Source: a virus
Lineage: Duplodnaviria > Caudoviricetes
Length of the DNA: 64,000 nucleotides
Direction: 5' to 3' (one strand)
Virus record (IMG/VR): IMGVR_UViG_3300036782_000001
Span: 3,754 to 67,753 of that record
The position numbers and the translations under genes are program-made. The notes beneath the pieces are model-generated. The model ran no database searches, was not told the origin of the DNA, and saw only the letters and a program-made list of their open reading frames with translations. Below, piece after piece: positions 1,704 through 31,177 of this stretch; positions within the stretch are counted from its first letter, which is position 1; each line of letters starts with the position of its first letter.

Positions 1704-3548
1704 ATGGAACTGTATATAAACATAAGCAAAGGGATGCACACACTCAACACTGGTAAGCTGACACGTAAGCGTGTAATGGTTAAAGGGAAGAATGGTAGAA
1801 CGTTCTATCGTATGCAATGGGTGAATCCATGGGATGCCAGTACCGGTCATGGTGTGAGGGCAATACACAATGGTAAACAGTTAGATGAGGCAATACGACA
1901 TGGTATTACCAGACAGCCTAACCTACAGCAACACCTATCTCATCAAGGGATACACTCAACACTAGACTTGAAGGATAAGCTACACTTTGACCATCCTCTG
2001 TTCTTACCTGAGACAGAGGAGTCATCACAAGGGGCAATGTTCTTAGCCAACCATATACAGCATGGTAGTCAGAAGTACCTTGGTATGTTTGATAACGACA
2101 TCTACCAACACTCCAGAGAGATGAGCAAGATAGATGACATAACAGGTATGGAAGAGGCTGAACGCATGAGTTCACTAGGGGCTAAGCTACCTAGCTCTTT
2201 CCTTGAGACCTTAGATGAAGGCTCAACAGTGGATATAGGCTGGTCTGTATCTAAGATGAATGGTGCTGATATGGACAGAGCCAAGGAGTTAGCTAAGATG
2301 ACCTATGGTGAGGACAGTATCCAGTATAATGCCATTAAGGATATGGAGCCAGACCCAGATAAGCAAGAGCAAGGGGAACAGAAGGTAGAGCATGTAATAG
2401 AGCCTAAGGATGAGAAGCCTGCATACGGCACACCAGAGGACTACCGCCCACATTACCATACTCATGATGAGAAGATTAACAACATGACTGAGTGGCGTAG
2501 GGAAGCCACTGAGAAGGAGATGCAAGGGAAGAACAAAAAGGAAGCAATCACCCAGAGTATAGACTTTGATGAGTTGGAGAGTATGGATGAGGATACAGTA
2601 GCTGACATGCTAGAAGACCAAGACAAGTATGGTGACCTGCATGAGCAACATGAAACAGCAATGAAGCATATGCTTAACAGTCAGCTAGAGGCTGCTAAGG
2701 AGTCAGCTAAGGATGTCTTTGGTGAGCTATCACCTACAGCCATTGAGCATGTGTTCAGCTCACCTGAAGGTAAGTATACTGCTCACATATCATCCATTAA
2801 GCCTGACATAATGAACTTGGGCATGGGCAAGTATGATGTCAACTGGTCTATGAGTATCAAGCTTAAATCAAAGGATGGATACCATGCTGGTAACATCAAC
2901 CGTACAGTTGGACGTGACCATGATGGTTCACTGGTGGTGCATAACGACTTGCTAGAGGTGGATGAGGACTACCAGAACATAGGCATTGCAAGCAATGTGT
3001 ATAACAGAAGTGAACAGATGTGGAAGCATATGGCAAAGGGCAACAAGGTTAAGATAAGCATATGTGCTAACATCACAGTAGGTGCTTATGCATGGGCTGA
3101 CAAGAGCAAGGGCTTTGACTTTGCTGATAGCTATGAGCTAAAGGCTGCTAGGTCTGAGCTTAAGGACTTCATAAGTAACAACAACTGGGATGAAGAGGAA
3201 GTCATGCAAGCCTGTGGATATGAGAATGTGGATGAGTTAGAGCATGCTTGGGAGTTCGCTGAACTGGATGATGGGTACAGGTATGACCTAACACCACATG
3301 CCTTTGAGGATATCAAGGGTGATGCCCACTTGGGCAAGGCATTCATGCTCACTAGTAAGTCCTCATGGGAAGCTGAGAAGCATATCAATACTGATGGCAA
3401 GGCATACCAAGAGCAACTACGTGATGATAGTGTTGACGACTACCTAGCTGACACAGGGCAAGAGGACTTGGACTATGAAGACCTAGAGGACTTGGATGAC
3501 GTTAGTGATGAGGAACTAGAAGTGTTTAGGAGGAAGTATAATGAGTGA
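1704..3548 (+). CDS. Tagged putative virion cargo protein with C-terminal GNAT acetyltransferase and acidic tail
   Basis: Start moved from 1605 to ATG 1704 (MELYINISKG, matching the 25705 paralog); GNAT motif A YQNIGIA, ANITVGAYAW..GFDF. Confidence 0.75.
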   Translation: MELYINISKGMHTLNTGKLTRKRVMVKGKNGRTFYRMQWVNPWDASTGHGVRAIHNGKQLDEAIRHGITRQPNLQQHLSHQGIHSTLDLKDKLHFDHPLFLPETEESSQGAMFLANHIQHGSQKYLGMFDNDIYQHSREMSKIDDITGMEEAERMSSLGAKLPSSFLETLDEGSTVDIGWSVSKMNGADMDRAKELAKMTYGEDSIQYNAIKDMEPDPDKQEQGEQKVEHVIEPKDEKPAYGTPEDYRPHYHTHDEKINNMTEWRREATEKEMQGKNKKEAITQSIDFDELESMDEDTVADMLEDQDKYGDLHEQHETAMKHMLNSQLEAAKESAKDVFGELSPTAIEHVFSSPEGKYTAHISSIKPDIMNLGMGKYDVNWSMSIKLKSKDGYHAGNINRTVGRDHDGSLVVHNDLLEVDEDYQNIGIASNVYNRSEQMWKHMAKGNKVKISICANITVGAYAWADKSKGFDFADSYELKAARSELKDFISNNNWDEEEVMQACGYENVDELEHAWEFAELDDGYRYDLTPHAFEDIKGDAHLGKAFMLTSKSSWEAEKHINTDGKAYQEQLRDDSVDDYLADTGQEDLDYEDLEDLDDVSDEELEVFRRKYNE

Positions 3549-3705
3549 TAAGCTGAGACAGTTCACAAGTGTTAAGCCTAAGCATAAGCGTGAGGGAACA
3601 GAGGGATTACTCAAGTCTAAAGATGGCAAGACAATAAGAGATGACAGCTGGCTACACCCTAGTGCTGGCGTGAAGAGGAAGAACCCAGAGGTACGGGGTG
3701 GGTAG
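3541..3705 (+). CDS. 54-aa basic peptide coupled to the GNAT gene (not in ORF track)
   Basis: AGGAGG RBS; MSDKLRQFTSVKPKHKREGTEGLLKSKDGKTIRDDSWLHPSAGVKRKNPEVRGG; similar to the N-terminus of the 26990 protein. Confidence 0.7.
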   Translation: MSDKLRQFTSVKPKHKREGTEGLLKSKDGKTIRDDSWLHPSAGVKRKNPEVRGG

Positions 3706-3960
3706 GCACCACCCCCCTTCCTAGAAACATGGGGGGTGGTAAAGTTTTCTTTTTCGGGAGTATAAGGAATCCTGTTTCCTTTGGAGTCCCTAGATGCCCT
3801 CCAACCCGATGCCTTTACACACTACCCCCTACTTTTTCAAACCACCCCCACCCTTATTTCTACCCTACAAAAAAGTACCCCACCTCCTTTTTCTCTAAAG
3901 GAAACCTTATTTTCGATATTTATAGAGAAAACTTCCCTTATGACCGTTTTTTCAAAGGTA
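3706..3960. other. Non-coding C-rich/A-T-tract segment, candidate genome end or packaging region
   Basis: Hairpin ACCACCCCCC...GGGGGGTGGT followed by alternating C-runs and A/T-runs, unlike flanking DNA. Confidence 0.35.
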
Positions 3961-3978
3961 GAAGGGAGGGATTCTGAA

Positions 3979-4512
3979 GTGAAGAACCACTACACCATTG
4001 ATGGAGACACTACAACGATATACTGCAAGAGTAAGGGAGATATAATCGAGGTGCTCATTGATACCGAGGATTTACCGAGGTTACAAGAGTATAGGACTTG
4101 GTGCATCAATCTACCTTACGGCAAGCAAGTTAAGCCCTACGTTATCGCTGGGGTAAAGGGGAGTACAAAAAGAGCAACATTGCATAGGATGTTAATGGGA
4201 TTCCCTGAGGGCATGGTAGTTGACCATAGGGACGGTAACACCTTCAACAACAAGAAGGAAAACCTAAGAGTGGTAACTCAAAGGGAGAACATAGAGCACT
4301 GCTGGAAGGATAACCTGAGTAAAGGCTCTAAAAGGACTGCGTGTACGGAGGATAACCCTGTAGGGGTTGTCTGGCACAAAAGGGATAAGCGATGGATAGC
4401 ACGTATCAAGGTTGATGGCAAGCGTATAGACATTGGTAGGTTTAAGGAAAAGGCTGATGCTATCCATGCTAGACAAGAAGCCGAAAAAGAATACTGGGGT
4501 GACCAACAATGA
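3979..4512 (+). CDS. HNH homing endonuclease with C-terminal AP2 domain
   Basis: GTG start after GGGAGGG; LHR..M...VVDHRDGNTFNNKKENLR; AP2-like GVVWHKRDKRWIARI...IGRF...DAIHAR. Confidence 0.9.
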   Translation: MKNHYTIDGDTTTIYCKSKGDIIEVLIDTEDLPRLQEYRTWCINLPYGKQVKPYVIAGVKGSTKRATLHRMLMGFPEGMVVDHRDGNTFNNKKENLRVVTQRENIEHCWKDNLSKGSKRTACTEDNPVGVVWHKRDKRWIARIKVDGKRIDIGRFKEKADAIHARQEAEKEYWGDQQ

Positions 4513-12955: not shown

Positions 12956-15790
12956 GTGATGAGCAGAGGTAGAAAGTGTTATATCCGCATAGACAACCCT
13001 AAAGGTATTAAAAAGAAGGATAAAAAGAAAGAGGAATTAGTACATGAATTAGGGCTAGAGAATTTCAAGAATGACCTACGCCCAGAGGTATGGAAGAGTA
13101 ATGAGCCAGAGCTGATTATTAAATCTGATGAGGAGTACATAGAAGAGTACTTTGACTTAGAGAAAATAATCCACGAGGAAGAGGTAGCAAAGGCAGGACG
13201 TGTCCATCTTCCTAGGGGTGCTAGACGTCACGCTTACAAAGTGCATTCTGACCACGGTGTAATTTACATTCCAGTCAATCGTTTGAAGCAGGTGTACCAA
13301 ACTCACCTAGCACTTCATAGGAGAAAAATCGCCCAAAACAAAGTTTCGATGCGAATGGGTAAGCCACTTCAACCCGTTGAAATCGGATATAACTATGATG
13401 TTCACGATGGACACCATAGATGGGAAGCCTCCAAAGAGTTAGGATACACACATGTTCCCTGTAAAGTAGTAGGAGATGACCCAGACAAGTTAAGGGACGC
13501 AAAAGAGAAGTATCGTGCTGTATGGAAGGCTGAAACTACTGAACAACTAGCAGAGACTCTATTACAGGACTTTGTGGATAAGATAACAGGTAAGAAACCT
13601 GTGTCCTTAGTACTTGATATCAACAAAGCCACTCTTAACAGAGGAAAGTTAGTTAAGAGACGTGTAATGGTTAAGGGTAAGGATGGAAAGGTCTTCTATC
13701 GTATGCAGTGGATTGACCCTAATGATGAGAAGGAAAATGTCCACCAAAAGGTACCTGACCAAGAGAATCACACAACATACAAGCATGATGATAAGTCAGT
13801 AAAGGAAATAGAGAAACGTCAGCACAACCGTTTCCCAGTAGTACAACATGAAGTAAAGCACTTCAAGAATAAGGAACATAATTACTCTACTGACAAGGAA
13901 GCCTACAATGAAGCTAAGGAGAAATACCACAGAGGTGAGAAGCTACCGCCTGTTAAGGTCAACCATAAAGGGGAGATACTTGAGGGACATCACCTTGTAG
14001 ACCTAGCTAGAGAGTTAGGATTAACCCATGCTCCTGCAATTGTATTAGGTAATCCTAAATTGAAGAAAGAGTATGAGGATGCACTAAAAGAGGACGTAAT
14101 GACTGAAGTTACCGATGAGGAAGGTAATAAGAAGGAAGTATCTGCTTCTGGTAAAGGTACCTCTGCTGATGGTACACAACGTGGTCAGCATATGGTGGTA
14201 GACGTTCCTGTAGAATATGTAGATGATATGGAACACTTCAAGCGTTATGTCAATAGGATGTATACTAAATCGTACATCATGGATTGTGCAGAAAAGGCTG
14301 GCATTACGTGGAATGATAAGAAAGCAGATGGAACCCTACTAACAGATGAGAAGATTCTATGGACTAGAGTTTTCAATGCTATCTCTGAACACATAGCTGC
14401 TGGTAACAAGTTTGAAGTGCCTCATGATGATAAGGACTCTAGTGCAAAGATGAAACAGATTAAGAAGGATGATGACCACAAGTTCTTCCTTATGTTCTGT
14501 AACAAGTTTAACTTTGACAGGGAAAAGATTAAGGACTGGTGTAGAGACCATGACCTTCTATGGAAAGAGAACCATAAAGACCCTGACATTGATTGGAAAA
14601 ACTGTGCTATGGCTATCAAGAAAGAATTATCTAAAGGTAAGATGCTGAATGGGGTACGTACAAGACGTAAACACCTTATGGAGGAAGCAAACACTATTGT
14701 AACAGATGCAGTTCGTGAACAGGTTAAAGCTCTTGGTAAGAAGTATGGCAAGACAGCTTTAGAAGAACAAGCACTAAAACAAGGTATTGAAGTAGACCTT
14801 TTAGATAAGAAAGGTAACGTAGTAGAGCACCCAGCTATCAGATGGATGAGGGTAGCGACTGCTATTCAGAAGCATATTGCCAAAGGTAATAAGTTTAAGA
14901 TGACTAATGACGATTTCGGTACAGAGGGAAGAATTCAAGCTGAAGAGTTTGATTATGGTGACAACGTTACTCTGACTCCACATGAGCGAGTAGGTATCGA
15001 TAGAGCCAAGCTTAACAGTAAGAAATTTGAACAACGTGCTAAGAAGTGGGCTACTAAGTCATTAGCTCTTGACCACGGTATTGACCCTAACAATACAGTG
15101 ATGGTAGATGAAGTGTATGATGCCTTTATTGAAGGTGCTCGTAATGCTAAGTTAATGGTACACTTTGACCCTACAGAATTACTAGATAGTGGTACATCTA
15201 TGCTAGAGGAAATGATGTCTTCAGGTAAGCTAAAGAACGATTTCCAATTAGATAGAGGGTATGATAAGGAGCATAGAGAGGTCATTGAACGTGATATCTA
15301 TGGTGATGACTTTGATGGTGCAGAAGACCATGAGCGCCCAGTATATGGTGTGCTAGACATATTCAATCAAGGCTTGAGCCTAGGACAACATGGTGGAGCA
15401 GCCTTAGTAATGAAGGAAGATGTTAAGAAACGTGCTTCTGGTACACCAAATGACTCTAACTCAATACCTTATGGCAAAGAGGGTAAATTAGTACACTCTG
15501 CTACAGACCCACATCACCTAGTAATACACCGTTGGTTTGGGCGTTGGAAAGAGCCTAAGAATGCTGATGGTAAGCGTAGACGTGCTATGAACTCCGTTAT
15601 TGAGGGTACAACATTCAATGACGATAAAGAGTACTTTGAAGCACAGGTACTTGGGGGAGTGGACTTGGCTAAGGATGTAGACCATGTTCTGGTACCTGAA
15701 CACTGGCAAAGTAATCCAGAGTGGCAAGACCATCATGAGCTAATGAAAATGTTTGCAGAGTCACAAGGGATAGGATTAAGATATGAATGA
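12956..15790 (+). CDS. Multidomain tagged cargo protein: two ParB/Srx-like domains, internal tag, three helical repeats, C-terminal DUF3626-like (ADP-ribosyltransferase-fold) domain
   Basis: VHDGHHRWEA and ILEGHHLVDLA; tag at about 13607-13720; C-terminus HFDP...ERPVYGVLD...DS...YFEAQVLGGVDLAKDV. Confidence 0.75.
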   Translation: MMSRGRKCYIRIDNPKGIKKKDKKKEELVHELGLENFKNDLRPEVWKSNEPELIIKSDEEYIEEYFDLEKIIHEEEVAKAGRVHLPRGARRHAYKVHSDHGVIYIPVNRLKQVYQTHLALHRRKIAQNKVSMRMGKPLQPVEIGYNYDVHDGHHRWEASKELGYTHVPCKVVGDDPDKLRDAKEKYRAVWKAETTEQLAETLLQDFVDKITGKKPVSLVLDINKATLNRGKLVKRRVMVKGKDGKVFYRMQWIDPNDEKENVHQKVPDQENHTTYKHDDKSVKEIEKRQHNRFPVVQHEVKHFKNKEHNYSTDKEAYNEAKEKYHRGEKLPPVKVNHKGEILEGHHLVDLARELGLTHAPAIVLGNPKLKKEYEDALKEDVMTEVTDEEGNKKEVSASGKGTSADGTQRGQHMVVDVPVEYVDDMEHFKRYVNRMYTKSYIMDCAEKAGITWNDKKADGTLLTDEKILWTRVFNAISEHIAAGNKFEVPHDDKDSSAKMKQIKKDDDHKFFLMFCNKFNFDREKIKDWCRDHDLLWKENHKDPDIDWKNCAMAIKKELSKGKMLNGVRTRRKHLMEEANTIVTDAVREQVKALGKKYGKTALEEQALKQGIEVDLLDKKGNVVEHPAIRWMRVATAIQKHIAKGNKFKMTNDDFGTEGRIQAEEFDYGDNVTLTPHERVGIDRAKLNSKKFEQRAKKWATKSLALDHGIDPNNTVMVDEVYDAFIEGARNAKLMVHFDPTELLDSGTSMLEEMMSSGKLKNDFQLDRGYDKEHREVIERDIYGDDFDGAEDHERPVYGVLDIFNQGLSLGQHGGAALVMKEDVKKRASGTPNDSNSIPYGKEGKLVHSATDPHHLVIHRWFGRWKEPKNADGKRRRAMNSVIEGTTFNDDKEYFEAQVLGGVDLAKDVDHVLVPEHWQSNPEWQDHHELMKMFAESQGIGLRYE

Positions 15791-25704: not shown

Positions 25705-27018
25705 ATGGAGTTAATTATAAACATCAACAAAGCCAGAGTCCTTAATACAGGCAAACTAGTTAAACGTGCTGTTCAAGTAAAAGGACAGGGTGGTAGAACA
25801 TTCACTCGTATGCAATGGATAAATCCTGATAAAGGTAAACCAGTAATGGAGACATCACATGAAGGACATGAAGACCCTCATGCACATAGAGTAGCTAACA
25901 TGAGTCCTGAACAGAAGCATTCTATGGTCAATCATTTTGTATCTAATAATAGGGATGAAGCGAATGACCTAGCAATGACTACAGGACAGAAGAGAGCACC
26001 TTATGTAGCAGACCATCAGGTTACCCAGCACTTAATGGATCATGCACACAAGATACCTCATGAATACGTGAAAGACCACTTGGATAGTAAAGAGTCAAAG
26101 CCTAGTCTAAATGTAGTGGGAAGTGACCTTCCAGAGAAGGAAGTTAACAAGCGTATGGGTAAGGAAGGTAGCTTAGACTTGTCCAAACTCAATACAGGGG
26201 CTTCAATGTATGACGACGACATCTTTAAAGAAGATACAGAGTATGCTAGTGAGGAAGGTCTTAACCCAGAGAAGGAATTTAGACATGTATTCAAAGACGT
26301 TACTAAAGCTGGTATTGAGAATGTATTTTCTGACCCTAAGGGTAACTGGACTGCACAGGTATCAGGTTATGACCTATTCCAGGATGGGGATAACGTGAAC
26401 TGTGGCTTAAACATGACCCTATACGACAAGGATGGGGAGAAGATGGGACATATCATACGTTCAGCTTACCATGACGCAGATGGCACTCTACAGATACACA
26501 ATGATGAGATGGAGTTAAAGACACAGTATCATGGTAAAGGGGTAGCCCAAACTATATACGACAGGTCTGAACAACTATGGAGACACCTATCAGGTGGGCA
26601 CAAGGTGGAGATAAACCTGACAGCCAATATCAGTGTTGGTGCATATGCATGGTCTAAGAAAGGCTTTGATTTTGCTAATGACAAGGAGCTAAAGATGGCT
26701 AGGGAAGAACTGAAACAATTCTGTAGAGGCAATGATATTAGCCTAGCAGATGTGCTTAAGAAGAGTGGACACAAGAGCGTAGATGATTTAAACCACTCAT
26801 GGCAGTTCTCTACACTACAGAATGGTAAGTCCTATGAACTTGACAAAGTTATAGACCCTAAATATAAAAAGGACGTTGAAGGTAGAGAAGGTCATTTTGG
26901 TAAGGCTTTCATGCTAGGTGGACTAGGTATATGGGACGGTAAAAAGACACTAAACGATGACCATTCTTCAGAAAAAGTAGGTGAAATACATGGCAGAGCA
27001 ACTAAAAAGAACAGCTAG
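25705..27018 (+). CDS. Tagged putative virion cargo protein with GNAT acetyltransferase (paralog of 1704..3548)
   Basis: N-terminal tag MELIININKA..LNTGKLVKR..RMQWINP; YHGKGVA, ANISVGAYAWSKKGFDF. Confidence 0.78.
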   Translation: MELIININKARVLNTGKLVKRAVQVKGQGGRTFTRMQWINPDKGKPVMETSHEGHEDPHAHRVANMSPEQKHSMVNHFVSNNRDEANDLAMTTGQKRAPYVADHQVTQHLMDHAHKIPHEYVKDHLDSKESKPSLNVVGSDLPEKEVNKRMGKEGSLDLSKLNTGASMYDDDIFKEDTEYASEEGLNPEKEFRHVFKDVTKAGIENVFSDPKGNWTAQVSGYDLFQDGDNVNCGLNMTLYDKDGEKMGHIIRSAYHDADGTLQIHNDEMELKTQYHGKGVAQTIYDRSEQLWRHLSGGHKVEINLTANISVGAYAWSKKGFDFANDKELKMAREELKQFCRGNDISLADVLKKSGHKSVDDLNHSWQFSTLQNGKSYELDKVIDPKYKKDVEGREGHFGKAFMLGGLGIWDGKKTLNDDHSSEKVGEIHGRATKKNS

Positions 27019-30000
27019 AAAAGTACCTCATTACCGTCACGGTAGAGAAGGTATGAGTAGTGAAGGTGATGCTTGGATGCATCCAGAAGTGTTTGATGAC
27101 GATTACGAACGAAAAACGAATTCTGACATAAGACGTTATATGAGTTCTCTGACGAAATCCAATCGTTTGGTTGTTGACATTAACAAGGCTGAAGCACCGA
27201 AAACTGGTAGGTCTTTGAATAGAGGAAAATTGGTTAAGAGAGCGGTACAAGTGAAAGGGAAAGATGGTAAGATGTTCACTCGTATGCAATGGGTAGACCC
27301 GAATGATGACCACCAAATACAGTCTCACCCTCTACACCAAGAGCCTTCACTGGAAGGTACTAAGCCTACTTCTTCTAAAGACCCTAGTGAGATGTCACGA
27401 GAAGAATACGTAGACCATCACGTTCGTAAGAAGATGTCTAAAGAAGAGAAATACGATATGCTAGAGAAACATGGTGTTGAATGGAAGCGAAATAACCATG
27501 AAGCTATTGACCATAAGAATGCTGTAATGGCTCTTAAAAATCATCTATTAAAGAATCCTCACCTTATTGGTGCACACAACAATAAGGAAGCAAAGGACAT
27601 TGAGAAGCCAATAACAGGTACAGATGATGAGAATGAGTTCTGGAATATGTGGGATAAGGCTGACAGAGAGGGTTCATATGAGCTTATGCGTAAGCTGGGT
27701 ATTATCGAAAAGGATGAGCAAGACCCTAGATTCGACCCTAATGTAAAGGAAAATATGAAGCCTATTAAGCACTTACTGAACGTTACTCGCTTGAAGAAGC
27801 ATCTACGTGAGAATAGACATCTCATGACTGACCCTGAGTATCTTCCTACAAAGGATACAAATGCAACTAAGGCTGCTAAAAAGCAATTAGAAGATAAGAA
27901 ACAAGGTATCAAGCCATCTCCTGCACAAGCAGGTGGTAATGATGTCCACACCATCTTAGCCAATATGCCTAGGGAACAGTTGTATAAGCTTATGAAGGAT
28001 GCAGGTATAGCAGATGAAGACCCACTTATCACAGGAGATAAGATGGCAGGGGTTAAGCACCACCTTAATATGATTAAGTTCAAGAAGCACCTAGAACACC
28101 ACCCTGAGATACTAACTCACAATCCTGATGGTTCTCTTACAGAAGGTGAGAAAGAACGTATTGCTTCCCTACCTGAAGAGGCTAAAGAACGTGACCGTAT
28201 TAAGAGCTTTGTGTCTGATATGTCTCAAGAGGACGTAGAGGATGCACTAGACAAATACTCTGACCATGATGCAGTTAAGAGTAGGACTAAATCTGACCAT
28301 GAGGGTATTAACAGTATGCATGCAAAGGGTGCTCTAGTTAAAGTATTCTCTGAAGATAAGGAAAGAATGAAGCCTTATCAAAAAGAAGTAAGTGCTGACA
28401 GACTAATGAAGATGCGTATTGGTAATAAGGTTATGGGTAAATTCCTACGTCATGCATTTGGCTTCAAGGGTATAGGAGACCTAAAAAGACCTGAAGATGA
28501 TGAGTTCCGTACTACAGAGTGGCAATGGCATGGTAATGGTGGTAGTGGCTCTGCTATGATGGAGAAGAACGATGATGGAGATGCAGTACTAACTGTTATA
28601 GACTATGGGGAAGATGGTCAAGGGTGGAACGAATTCCAAGTCCCTCTACAGGAGGTTAAGGACTTTGTAGACGATTTGAGAAAAGGGAACGAACAAAAGA
28701 AAAAGGTTGAGCAGAAGGAAGTTCCCCTACAGAAGAAGCCAGCAGACCAGATAGAGAAAGCCCTAAACGAGAGTTTCGAAAAGAACTACACTCCAGAGGT
28801 TGGGGAGGTCATGAAGTCCCACTTTACTAAACTGTGGAATAATGCAGACCGCTCTGGAAAGATTAGTGACATCGTGAAGAAGTCTATGAATATGACTAAG
28901 GGTACTATGAGGAACTTACTTAAAGAATGGGGTGTTCCAGTCTCTCCTACAGGAGATATTATTAAGACTAACGACCCTAACTTTAAGTCTATGGTATTCA
29001 AGGATGAGATTCAAGATAAGAAGTCTAAGAGTGCTATGGATTACCTTAAAGCAGCAGACATAGGAGTAGACCGCAAAGCTACACCTGATGCTCCCTATGA
29101 CCCTTATGTACTACACGAATCAGCTAAGAACTGGACAGAAGGGGAGAAGGCACAGGCACGTAAGGAGCTATTAAAGAATGCAATTCATGTTAAGACGGGT
29201 ATTACACATGAAGACCATGACAAACGTATAGCAAAACTTACAGACCACCTTCATTCATCTACGACTCATATACCATTTGACTTGATGAGTCACTTAATGG
29301 CAAATGGTATGAAAGTTAAGTTCTCTGATGTAGATGCTCACGGTAATGCTCACACAGGGGCTAACTACAATGGTAAGGACAATGCTATTTATCTTGACTC
29401 TCAGTACTATCATTCTACGTCAGTGTTTAAAGACCATCCACATGACCACATACCAGAGAAGACAGAACATCCTACTATCAAGGGAGCTAAATACGGTCAC
29501 TGGAGTATAGGAGAGAATATGGTGCATGAATCTGCCCACGCTATTGACAGATTCCTAAGTGGTGGGGATTCCTACCTAAACTGGGATAAAGGTCAAGGTA
29601 GTACTTATGCTAAAGACCATTTAAATACTGTTCCTGAACATTATAAGAAGAAAGTTGAACAGTCTAACCCTGATAAGGAGATTAGATACAGCAAGGAAGG
29701 AAAGTATTTTTATGTTTTAGATGAGTGGATGTCCAACTATGAGGGACGTGTCTATGGAGAGTATCAAAAGCTAAATCCCGATTACGTTCACTCTGACAAT
29801 GGTACAGGTAAGATGTATGATAAGAAGTTCCAAGGTGTGGAAGGTATGCATGGTACTGAACACTGGGCTGAATCGGTAGCAGGTTATGGTAATGCTATTC
29901 ACTCTTACCAACGTTGGAAAGATATGAATCCAGGTAATAAGTCTACATCCATGGATGAGTGGGCTGAACAGATGCATAAGCAGTATTCACAAAAGGGCTT

Positions 30001-30250
30001 TGGTACAGCTAATGCAGAAGGTCAAAACTATAAAGCTGGTACAAGCACTAGACCAATGGAATCTTATGGATGGCAATACCACACAATGAAACAACACTAT
30101 CCTGAACTATTTGGTGCAATGCAGTCCATCTTTAATAGACCCGACTTTTTAGGAAGTAAGGGACAGAGCCGAACAGAGTCAATTCAGCATGGAAACTCAG
30201 CTAAGAAATCTCTAGGCTTATTCGTTGATTTGGGAGGGAGCAAGGCATGA
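26990..30250 (+). CDS. Tagged multidomain cargo protein with helical repeats and C-terminal zincin metallopeptidase
   Basis: ATG 26990 after AGGTGA; tag at about 27167-27301; HESAH at 29525-29539 and downstream EHWAES. Confidence 0.75.
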   Translation: MAEQLKRTARKVPHYRHGREGMSSEGDAWMHPEVFDDDYERKTNSDIRRYMSSLTKSNRLVVDINKAEAPKTGRSLNRGKLVKRAVQVKGKDGKMFTRMQWVDPNDDHQIQSHPLHQEPSLEGTKPTSSKDPSEMSREEYVDHHVRKKMSKEEKYDMLEKHGVEWKRNNHEAIDHKNAVMALKNHLLKNPHLIGAHNNKEAKDIEKPITGTDDENEFWNMWDKADREGSYELMRKLGIIEKDEQDPRFDPNVKENMKPIKHLLNVTRLKKHLRENRHLMTDPEYLPTKDTNATKAAKKQLEDKKQGIKPSPAQAGGNDVHTILANMPREQLYKLMKDAGIADEDPLITGDKMAGVKHHLNMIKFKKHLEHHPEILTHNPDGSLTEGEKERIASLPEEAKERDRIKSFVSDMSQEDVEDALDKYSDHDAVKSRTKSDHEGINSMHAKGALVKVFSEDKERMKPYQKEVSADRLMKMRIGNKVMGKFLRHAFGFKGIGDLKRPEDDEFRTTEWQWHGNGGSGSAMMEKNDDGDAVLTVIDYGEDGQGWNEFQVPLQEVKDFVDDLRKGNEQKKKVEQKEVPLQKKPADQIEKALNESFEKNYTPEVGEVMKSHFTKLWNNADRSGKISDIVKKSMNMTKGTMRNLLKEWGVPVSPTGDIIKTNDPNFKSMVFKDEIQDKKSKSAMDYLKAADIGVDRKATPDAPYDPYVLHESAKNWTEGEKAQARKELLKNAIHVKTGITHEDHDKRIAKLTDHLHSSTTHIPFDLMSHLMANGMKVKFSDVDAHGNAHTGANYNGKDNAIYLDSQYYHSTSVFKDHPHDHIPEKTEHPTIKGAKYGHWSIGENMVHESAHAIDRFLSGGDSYLNWDKGQGSTYAKDHLNTVPEHYKKKVEQSNPDKEIRYSKEGKYFYVLDEWMSNYEGRVYGEYQKLNPDYVHSDNGTGKMYDKKFQGVEGMHGTEHWAESVAGYGNAIHSYQRWKDMNPGNKSTSMDEWAEQMHKQYSQKGFGTANAEGQNYKAGTSTRPMESYGWQYHTMKQHYPELFGAMQSIFNRPDFLGSKGQSRTESIQHGNSAKKSLGLFVDLGGSKA

Positions 30251-30634: not shown

Positions 30635-31177
30635 ATGAACGATGACACTTTGTTGGTAATATCGCCCAAGCTTATGGACATCCAGAAGGGTAAGAGTGAC
30701 CGTAATGGATTAGTACAACAGATACTAACATATGTACGAGATGGTAGAACAATAACTCGTAAACAGTGGGTACGTAGTGAGTTTGCAGACCACGCTAAGA
30801 AAAATGAGGAAGAAAAGAAAGACGTACTATTACGTGAGCAAGAAAGGGAAAGACGTAAGGAAGCTAAGAAGAATGATGAACAGAATGCGAAAATGGCTAC
30901 TCAAGATAAACGAGCACGTAAGAAGAAGATAAAAGAGAAGGAAAAGATGGAAGGGCATGGGGAAGGTACTAAGCATGTTATCCATGTAGGGGAATACGCT
31001 AAGAAGCTAGCAGACCAAAAGAAAAAGCGTATGCAGGAAGAGAAGGATAAGAAGCATAAGCAACAAGGCGATAAGAAGAAGGATAACAAGAAGAAGGATA
31101 AACATGGCTCCTTTGGACAGGCTAAACAGACCAGAGAAGATAATAAAGCAAGTGACAATATGTCTCTTGGTAAGTAG
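30635..31177 (+). CDS. Highly basic/charged protein with a divergent N-terminal tag (putative internal DNA-condensing protein)
   Basis: MDIQKGKSDRNGLV...RDGRTITRKQWV, then Lys/Glu-rich low-complexity sequence. Confidence 0.7.
   Translation: MNDDTLLVISPKLMDIQKGKSDRNGLVQQILTYVRDGRTITRKQWVRSEFADHAKKNEEEKKDVLLREQERERRKEAKKNDEQNAKMATQDKRARKKKIKEKEKMEGHGEGTKHVIHVGEYAKKLADQKKKRMQEEKDKKHKQQGDKKKDNKKKDKHGSFGQAKQTREDNKASDNMSLGK

Follow-up and report, generated by a model that had tools for sequence, protein, structure and literature searches.

A conserved short peptide, free or fused, follows the GNAT-like domain of phage head-associated proteins and is its predicted binding partner

What is the role of a short peptide that is encoded directly behind an acetyltransferase-like phage gene, as a protein of its own at one locus and as the beginning of a much longer protein at another? 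We analysed this arrangement in a stretch of 64,000 nucleotides (nt), positions 3,754 to 67,753 of the virus record IMGVR_UViG_3300036782_000001 and hereafter called the window, whose DNA is approximately 86-89% identical to that of the Bacillus phages CP-51, Shanette and JL (Herelleviridae, genus Siminovitchvirus) and whose source is a CP-51-like Bacillus myophage. Two of its genes, GNAT-1 and GNAT-2, encode proteins with a GNAT-like domain; a first-pass annotation, made from the sequence alone, had noticed a homologous short peptide behind each and had proposed a cognate inhibitor, antitoxin or substrate peptide of the GNAT. Here we report that the 54-residue open reading frame (ORF) behind GNAT-1 encodes a stand-alone paralogue, shortened at its C-terminus, of a conserved partner peptide, and that this peptide is probably, at a rough probability of 0.75 and judging largely by a predicted complex, the cognate binding partner of the GNAT-like domain.

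At locus 1, the large terminase gene (23-1699) is followed by GNAT-1 and the 54-residue ORF. At locus 2, GNAT-2 is followed by the gene for a 1086-residue protein and by genes for proteins of 125 and 180 residues, behind which a portal gene would be expected, judging by synteny with CP-51 and Shanette. The features of the two loci are as follows.

1704-3548, + strand: GNAT-1 protein, 614 residues from the ATG at 1704 (a start set by alignment to the GNAT-2 N-terminus), made up of an N-terminal module, a long linker, a GNAT-like domain and an acidic tail; assigned to PHROG 27103 and to the C-terminal part of PHROG 4611, 'minor head protein'.
2691-3395, + strand: GNAT-like domain of GNAT-1 with its helical C-terminal subdomain, aligned to GNAT-2 residues 192-419 and sharing motifs with distant homologues.
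3541-3705, + strand: 54-residue ORF, the free, truncated copy of the leader or partner peptide by homology, with the core end DDSWLHP and 54 codons in 7 variants.
25705-27018, + strand: GNAT-2 protein, 437 residues, identified from an AlphaFold2 (AF2) model and Foldseek GNAT matches.
26260-26964, + strand: GNAT-like domain of GNAT-2 with its helical subdomain, residues 186-420, which holds the interface in the complex model.
26990-30250, + strand: 1086-residue protein with a leader, an N-terminal module, a long middle and a C-terminal region with an HExxH motif; PHROG 23829.
26990-27160, + strand: leader of the 1086-residue protein, residues 1-57, with the core DAWMHP and a 29-nt overlap with the end of GNAT-2; residues 1-54 form the modelled interface.
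27164-27301, + strand: N-terminal module of the 1086-residue protein, starting at 'DINKA' and recognized by the module profile.

BLASTP aligned the 54-residue ORF with the N-terminus of the 1086-residue protein at 15 of 40 identical residues, with one 8-residue gap and an expectation value (E) of 5e-5. A profile built from 9 fused leaders, without any 54-residue sequence, was then searched against the 808 six-frame ORF pieces (at least 30 residues) of the window and retrieved the 1086-residue protein (E 6.7e-28) and the 54-residue ORF (E 1.9e-7), the next piece following at 0.064. The record from which the window is taken has 67,753 nt and an estimated completeness of 49%; in it the family profile gave exactly two matches, each directly 3′ of a GNAT gene. 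The homology seen in the first-pass annotation is confirmed by these searches, far beyond chance, and its description of the peptide as free at one locus and fused at the other was right; both forms recur widely among relatives. Within the ORF only the first approximately 40 residues (to DDSWLHP) are homologous to the first approximately 35 of the leader, whereas the last 14 are unrelated; the leader's second half is absent from the ORF. Leaders from two other viral contigs (L023 and L040) hold the 8 residues that are missing from the window leader and thereby bridge it to the ORF. The ORF had been described as unannotated; it is a hypothetical protein in CP-51 (gp196) and Shanette (gp31) and belongs to PHROG 22736, listed as function unknown.

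Two other identities of the ORF were considered and rejected. A degenerate copy of the N-terminal module was suggested by a second BLASTP segment at E 0.010, but the module profile gave only E 0.85. Nor is it the first exon of a gene interrupted by the HNH endonuclease gene downstream: in HNH-less relatives the ORF has the identical 54-codon length and stop.

The pairing extends far beyond this phage. GNAT-domain homologues from viral and prokaryotic contigs were reduced to 95 non-redundant genes having a stop codon, and at approximately 70 of these 95 loci a recurrent small ORF or N-terminal leader lies directly downstream, an adjacency that is conserved across phyla. The leader profile had 15 hits among the 9,656 ORF pieces of the 95 loci, and all 15 were the ORF immediately downstream of the GNAT gene. 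Conservation of the peptide beside homologous GNATs, which the first-pass annotation had named as a check of its proposal, is what the wider sample contains. Five iterations of the leader-only profile at E 1e-3 reached nothing past these 15 SPO1-type loci; the link to a second, wider peptide family required profile–profile comparison, in which hhalign related the two families at E 5e-5 (probability 67.5%, 28 columns). The profile of the second family had 12 hits, 11 of them immediately downstream and one within the C-terminus of a GNAT protein (L152), and no matches among the remaining approximately 9,450 ORF pieces; since this profile contains its own hits, the absence elsewhere is the test and not the E-values. 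Among its members are the free 57-residue ORF of phage PBC5 and the free 59-residue ORF of phage HSE3. The latter, gp021 (L007 4651-4830), bears the name 'glutamate--tRNA ligase', which is a mis-annotation.

Blind clustering of the downstream ORFs, in which spurious clusters from alternative frames of GC-rich DNA were disregarded, gave recurrent families of 36, 15, 9, 3, 2, 2 and 2 of the 95 loci. The largest is actinobacterial (L047, L055-L066 and others, from Nocardia, Saccharopolyspora and related genomes), and its members are fused often to ADP-ribosylglycohydrolase or else to 2H phosphoesterase domains. A 222-residue DUF4258 protein in the equivalent position (L041) was placed in the partner-peptide family by no profile and is a look-alike only. 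Pfam had no match on the 54-residue ORF, the leader-bearing protein or the peptide part of 10 family members, and PHROG had none for 8 downstream proteins (7 family members and one actinobacterial-type ORF), leaving PHROG 22736 of the 54-residue ORF as the family's sole PHROG match.

Searching 1.84 billion proteins with a profile of 24 family members yielded 206 representative clusters at E <= 1e-3. Most of the best 150 of the 206 are free proteins (103, of 47-128 residues, median 72); 26 carry the peptide N-terminally on a longer protein and 21 internally or C-terminally. In 20 of these 21 the peptide stands behind an N-terminal region without a GNAT motif, and the remaining one is a GNAT–peptide fusion. 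Such fusions occur in both orders (L152 and P0144; P0042, P0148 and P0153), and in three representatives the peptide precedes another GNAT-like domain within one protein. The longer proteins with an N-terminal peptide carry Zeta toxin kinase, MuF, DUF3626 or NUDIX domains. Across the 24-row family alignment one Asp is invariant and one His nearly so, no lysine occupies a fixed position, and the distance from the N-terminus to the core ranges from about 5 to 40 residues.

This variety of effector-type domains behind an N-terminal peptide, to which the HExxH region of the 1086-residue protein can be added, would also be expected if the peptide were a docking tag, that is, if a head-anchored GNAT-like domain were the receptor and the peptide the loading signal of its carrier protein for injection. 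The enzyme domains on the actinobacterial equivalent fit the same idea, and phages may offer parallels: T4 uses N-terminal capsid-targeting sequences, and in phage P1 some internal Dar proteins are reportedly required for the packing of others. We consider a docking tag, the strongest of the rival readings, improbable; the 54-residue protein would then be a tag without cargo, or itself cargo of very small size. Such a tag accounts for the range of effector domains and leaves unexplained the 103 free forms among the best 150 representatives, which lack a cargo domain; moreover, each GNAT gene has a single tag, no other tagged genes are present in the record, and a peptide fused to the GNAT protein itself would load nothing. 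A still bolder form, in which a receptor at the portal vertex (held there through a MuF domain, a portal protein or the N-terminal module) would read one N-terminal peptide as a general cargo-loading code of tailed phages, is doubtful. Under such a code any effector that gained the peptide by fusion would be packed and injected with the DNA, the kinase, NUDIX and metallopeptidase-like regions being candidates, and regulation, or the part of a minimal cargo, would fall to the small free proteins.

The nature of the GNAT-like domain bears on the same choice. The AF2 model of GNAT-2 has a mean predicted local distance difference test score (pLDDT) of 72.3, with 80-94 in the core, and a predicted template-modelling score of 0.56. 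All four Foldseek matches of this model in the PDB at E <= 0.001 are GNAT acetyltransferases (best 5c82, E 3.3e-4), their template-modelling scores being low because only approximately 120 of the 437 residues align; a profile search of PDB sequences gave a best E of 0.03, with acetyltransferases as five of six weak hits. The acetyl-CoA pyrophosphate-binding motif of GNATs is Q/R-x-x-G-x-G/A after strand beta4, and alignments place a Q/H-G/N-x-G-x-A/G stretch after beta4 in GNAT-1, in GNAT-2 and in most homologues, with HSE3 and PBC5 showing a degenerate form. The distant homologue L137 matches Pfam Acetyltransf_1 at 23.4 bits (cut-off 20.7) beside a MuF domain. The modelled GNAT-2 domain thus has the GNAT fold and the acetyl-CoA motif, and in addition a helical C-terminal subdomain with its own invariant residues. 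As for its carriers, the domain makes up the C-terminus of minor head proteins of the MuF type (PBC5_004, L074, L137), stands C-terminally on a lambda-type portal protein (L054) and, likewise C-terminally, on a large multi-domain, polyvalent protein (L047) together with a papain-fold glutamine deamidase domain; no MuF domain was detected in GNAT-1 or GNAT-2, whose carrier is an N-terminal module of another kind. That the carriers are always head-associated suits a docking tag, but a mere receptor would have no need of the acetyl-CoA motif Q-x-x-G-x-A/G that most members retain.

The first-pass annotation had proposed modelling the GNAT–peptide pairs, which was carried out for GNAT-2 (residues 186-437, 17-row alignment) with the leader (residues 1-60, 24-row alignment). 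The complex scored 0.89 (0.89, 0.88 and 0.89 in separate runs) against 0.46 for the best of three controls, at least 96% of contacts were common to the runs, and the partner had a pLDDT of at least 82; with no close solved relative by sequence, recall of a known complex is unlikely. Almost all of the leader contributes to the modelled interface. On the GNAT-2 side this includes residues 266-271 (beta4), 273-281, 305-318 (beta5 and alpha4), 364-370 and 394-401, which are the family's invariant positions, including those of the helical subdomain. Residues 273-281 form the loop and helix start that are the cofactor pyrophosphate site in GNATs, and the nearly invariant His31 of the leader is predicted to contact residues 312 and 315. 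Such a contact map suggests that the peptide would cover the acetyl-CoA site. An interface this large and wrapped around the domain, if real, would also suit the stable complex that a docking tag implies.

GNATs bind peptide substrates in the beta4–beta5 cleft, and the modelled peptide touches both strands, as would be expected if it were acetylated by the GNAT or were a subunit needed for GNAT activity or folding. The segment 307-320, poorly modelled alone and part of the interface, would also fit a fold-completing partner, and distant members of the domain family are weakly RimI-like (E 4.9e-4, below the cut-off). The main-text passages of Iyer et al. 2017 (PMC5512222) that deal with phage GNATs place them among protein-modifying RimI-like enzymes. 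We nevertheless hold a substrate or activating subunit to be very improbable: the family alignment offers no fixed lysine, only the Asp being invariant and the His nearly so, the spacing between N-terminus and core differs widely, and the predicted contacts would occupy the pyrophosphate loop and alpha4, where the cofactor is expected. The substrate peptide of the first-pass annotation is disfavoured on the first two of these grounds.

A further question is whether the 54-residue ORF is a functional gene at all. GNAT-1 and GNAT-2 are paralogues (38% identity over 300 residues, E 3e-56; 64% over the first approximately 40 residues), and the ORF might be a leftover of duplication, the stump of a next gene cut at the present end of the late operon and kept open only through its overlap with the terminator and the coupling to GNAT-1. 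Such a stump would account for homology that is limited to the first approximately 40 residues, for the unrelated last 14, and for the last 7 codons, which are invariant at the DNA level in 7 variants, overlap a GC hairpin region and are followed by a T-rich tract. It would also agree with the position of the ORF close to the end of the annotated long terminal repeat of Shanette (L002 5061-5309), 84 nt further on, so that GNAT-1 and its peptide close the repeat, and with the narrow range of the exact 54-residue type, whose free form is confined to the CP-51 group (2 clusters in 5.8 billion proteins; 6 of 50,697 phage records).

Against a leftover stands the way in which the ORF has been kept. 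Its length is 54 codons in 7 of 7 variants, the ratio of non-synonymous to synonymous substitution rates (dN/dS) is 0.08-0.43 in 21 pairs of these variants, and within codons 27-39 four codons vary synonymously with zero amino-acid changes; the ORF is under purifying selection. A strong ribosome-binding site, AGGAGG, lies 7 nt ahead of the ATG, which overlaps the GNAT-1 stop (ATGAGTGA). Tight coupling to the upstream gene has been kept, with the ribosome-binding site, through three kinds of junction, in which the genes overlap by 5 nt or by 1 nt or the stop stands directly before an in-frame ATG. The retained part is also the one carrying the family's invariant Asp and its near-invariant His. 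With only 38% identity between the GNAT paralogues the split must be old, and a dead stump is unlikely to have stayed open for so long. We therefore judge a leftover to be quite unlikely. In the Shanette-type variants (L002, L030, L032), the GNAT-1 TAG stands directly and in frame ahead of the peptide ATG, and read-through would yield a GNAT–peptide fusion like the natural fusions elsewhere.

The hairpin at the end of the ORF is the last feature of locus 1.

3708-3755, + strand: terminator-like hairpin, a 10-bp GC stem (3708-3717 / 3731-3740) and then a U-rich tract.

Its label comes from reading the sequence and not from statistics: the centroid fold has an energy of -21.9 kcal/mol with a z-score against shuffles of -0.30, not unusual for its composition, and a consensus terminator scan of 3300-4200 called nothing, because the loop is 13 nt long.

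Among the readings set out above, we favour a cognate binding partner, and within it we give about an even chance to an inhibitor-like cap. Most family members are free and small, there is one peptide per GNAT and the two pairs diverged in parallel, with 38% identity for both, the modelled site covers cofactor elements, and passages on MuF toxins (Jamet et al. 2017, PMC5576092) set a precedent for immunity ORFs encoded downstream. The GNAT-like domain would be the C-terminal module of proteins built into or packed in the phage head, and the peptide would be made together with it through translational coupling. It would fold onto the domain, its Asp-x-x-x-His core lying on beta4, the pyrophosphate loop and alpha4 and the remainder wrapping around the helical C-terminal subdomain, and could so cap the cofactor and substrate cleft that the acetyltransferase stays silent in the phage-producing cell, an immunity- or antitoxin-like role. 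At locus 2 the peptide would have become the N-terminal leader of the next packaged protein, whereas the 54-residue protein may be its surviving form at locus 1, limited to the interface's first half. From the homology of that first half we infer that the 54-residue protein binds GNAT-1; that the GNAT proteins of this phage are packed and injected is likewise presumed. Of the inhibitor or antitoxin put forward in the first-pass annotation, then, the cognate partner is upheld by adjacency across phyla, fusions to the GNAT and the complex model, and the inhibition is plausible but unproven.

Several observations weigh against this reading. That an immunity protein should be joined to the packed effector behind it, as at locus 2 and many other loci, is odd, because it would be packed together with the enzyme it blocks. 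Approximately 25 of the 95 loci have no recurrent downstream family, and the actinobacterial family of 36 loci, tried as a homologue of the leader, gave hhalign E 0.4-0.5 and is positionally equivalent only. Among solved complexes 58 of 80, and among mismatched pairs 2 of 110, attain the mark for the complex score, a calibration that is only rough with custom alignments, so that the score indicates support and not binding. The complex modelled is that of GNAT-2 with the full leader and not of GNAT-1 with the 54-residue protein, and its most confident contacts use leader residues 43-51, which the 54-residue protein lacks. The placement of the acetyl-CoA site comes from a comparison of the contact list with textbook GNAT topology in a cofactor-free model, and the conserved segment 307-320 has a pLDDT below 50 in the GNAT-2 monomer. 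Neither window GNAT protein has a Pfam or NCBIfam match, and the present results demonstrate neither toxicity nor activity of a GNAT.

How does the pair compare with known systems? In GNAT type II toxin–antitoxin pairs such as TacT/TacA, AtaT/AtaR and KacT/KacA, the antitoxins are DUF1778 or ribbon-helix-helix proteins encoded upstream. Both there and, by prediction, here a GNAT is held inactive by the direct binding of a small cognate protein. The partner in the phage, in contrast, is encoded downstream and has no Pfam family or DNA-binding domain, so that a DUF1778-type upstream antitoxin was not found, and its GNAT has an extra helical subdomain and a virion-type carrier. With T4 capsid-targeting sequences and the packing hierarchy of the P1 Dar proteins, the pair would share an N-terminal signal or partner protein that decides entry into the head; it differs in that most family members are free and cargo-less.

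MuF polymorphic toxins come closest in gene arrangement. In the passages of Jamet et al. 2017 (PMC5576092) on long MuF proteins with C-terminal toxin domains, small ORFs downstream are proposed as immunity genes; there as here a head protein encoded beside portal and terminase genes bears, at its C-terminus, an enzyme domain of variable type, and the small ORF (<150 residues) directly downstream has its equivalent in the peptide. Distant homologues of the window GNAT-like domain themselves sit on MuF domains. The window proteins differ in lacking a detectable MuF domain and in coming from a lytic myophage. Their partner belongs to a single conserved family and is in many cases joined to the protein that follows. 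Neither GNAT nor acetyltransferase occurs in the main text of Jamet et al. 2017. Passages of Iyer et al. 2017 (PMC5512222) describe GNAT domains of phage proteins with several domains, encoded next to packaging genes, and predict that they are packed and injected. These domains resemble the present ones in their multi-domain carriers, as in the homologue L047 with its glutamine deamidase domain; in those passages they fall into two families, and a conserved partner peptide encoded downstream is mentioned for neither.

Besides the GNAT-like domain, the two GNAT proteins share their N-terminal module, which a profile also detected in the 1086-residue protein, in a 944-residue protein and, more weakly, in the 180-residue protein (five window proteins, E 9.5e-24, 1.4e-22, 3.8e-22, 3.8e-19 and 2.3e-4). 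In GNAT-1 and GNAT-2 the module sits at residue 1. Its first strand is 'DINKA', which in the 1086-residue protein starts a homologous module and so marks a point of fusion; release of the peptide from a polyprotein at LTKS and DINKA, as the first-pass annotation had imagined, finds no support. A module of approximately 40 residues with a conserved final Q-W-V-x-P starts four proteins around the packaging genes (1704-1829, 25705-25827, 27164-27301 and 30686-30790). In the 944-residue protein (12956-15790, + strand), far from both GNAT loci, it follows a ParB-like nuclease region, occupying residues ~216-255 (E 3.8e-22), and is matched by PHROG 26588. One might imagine that the module is this phage group's counterpart of MuF for association with the head, although this is an idea only. 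For the C-terminal HExxH region of the 1086-residue protein, an Atlas search yielded a mere lead to zincin-like peptidase families.

The surroundings of locus 1 add further observations. The tree of GNAT domains, made to choose between duplication within the genome and acquisition of this locus, leaves 7 of its 14 inner branches open and gives GNAT-1 a long branch. Two relatives from viral contigs (L020 and L027) have the order GNAT, leader-bearing 1100-residue protein, large terminase, compared with terminase, GNAT-1, peptide in the window, which hints at the origin of locus 1. Directly behind the hairpin lies an HNH endonuclease gene (3979-4512, + strand; Pfam HNH_3, E 2.9e-10, with a weak AP2-like C-terminal match), which is absent at the same place in CP-51 and Shanette and so looks like a homing-endonuclease insertion. 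Past the hairpin, 3760-3900 (+ strand) is strongly C-rich and G-poor, a character that is kept among relatives while the sequence is not.

In the literature, judged by titles and abstract openings, we found no paper on the GNAT–peptide pair and no virion proteomics for CP-51, HSE3 or PBC5, and the main-text passages of PMC5512222 and PMC5576092 do not describe the conserved peptide family and its pattern of fusion. Polyvalent GNATs and small ORFs behind MuF toxins were known; what is new is a two-part module of enzyme and partner in head-associated phage effectors, defined by a GNAT-like domain on head-associated proteins and a cognate peptide of ~35-70 residues and represented by at least 206 clusters. 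The pair accounts for many of the small ORFs, labelled 'hypothetical', that lie behind genes for minor head proteins. How injected head enzymes stay harmless in the producing cell, or are chosen for packing, is known for very few phages, and the pair is a concrete and cheap system in which to test this. A peptide that proves to be an inhibitor would represent a novel type of GNAT antitoxin, and one that proves to be a loading tag could serve to bring selected proteins into phage heads.

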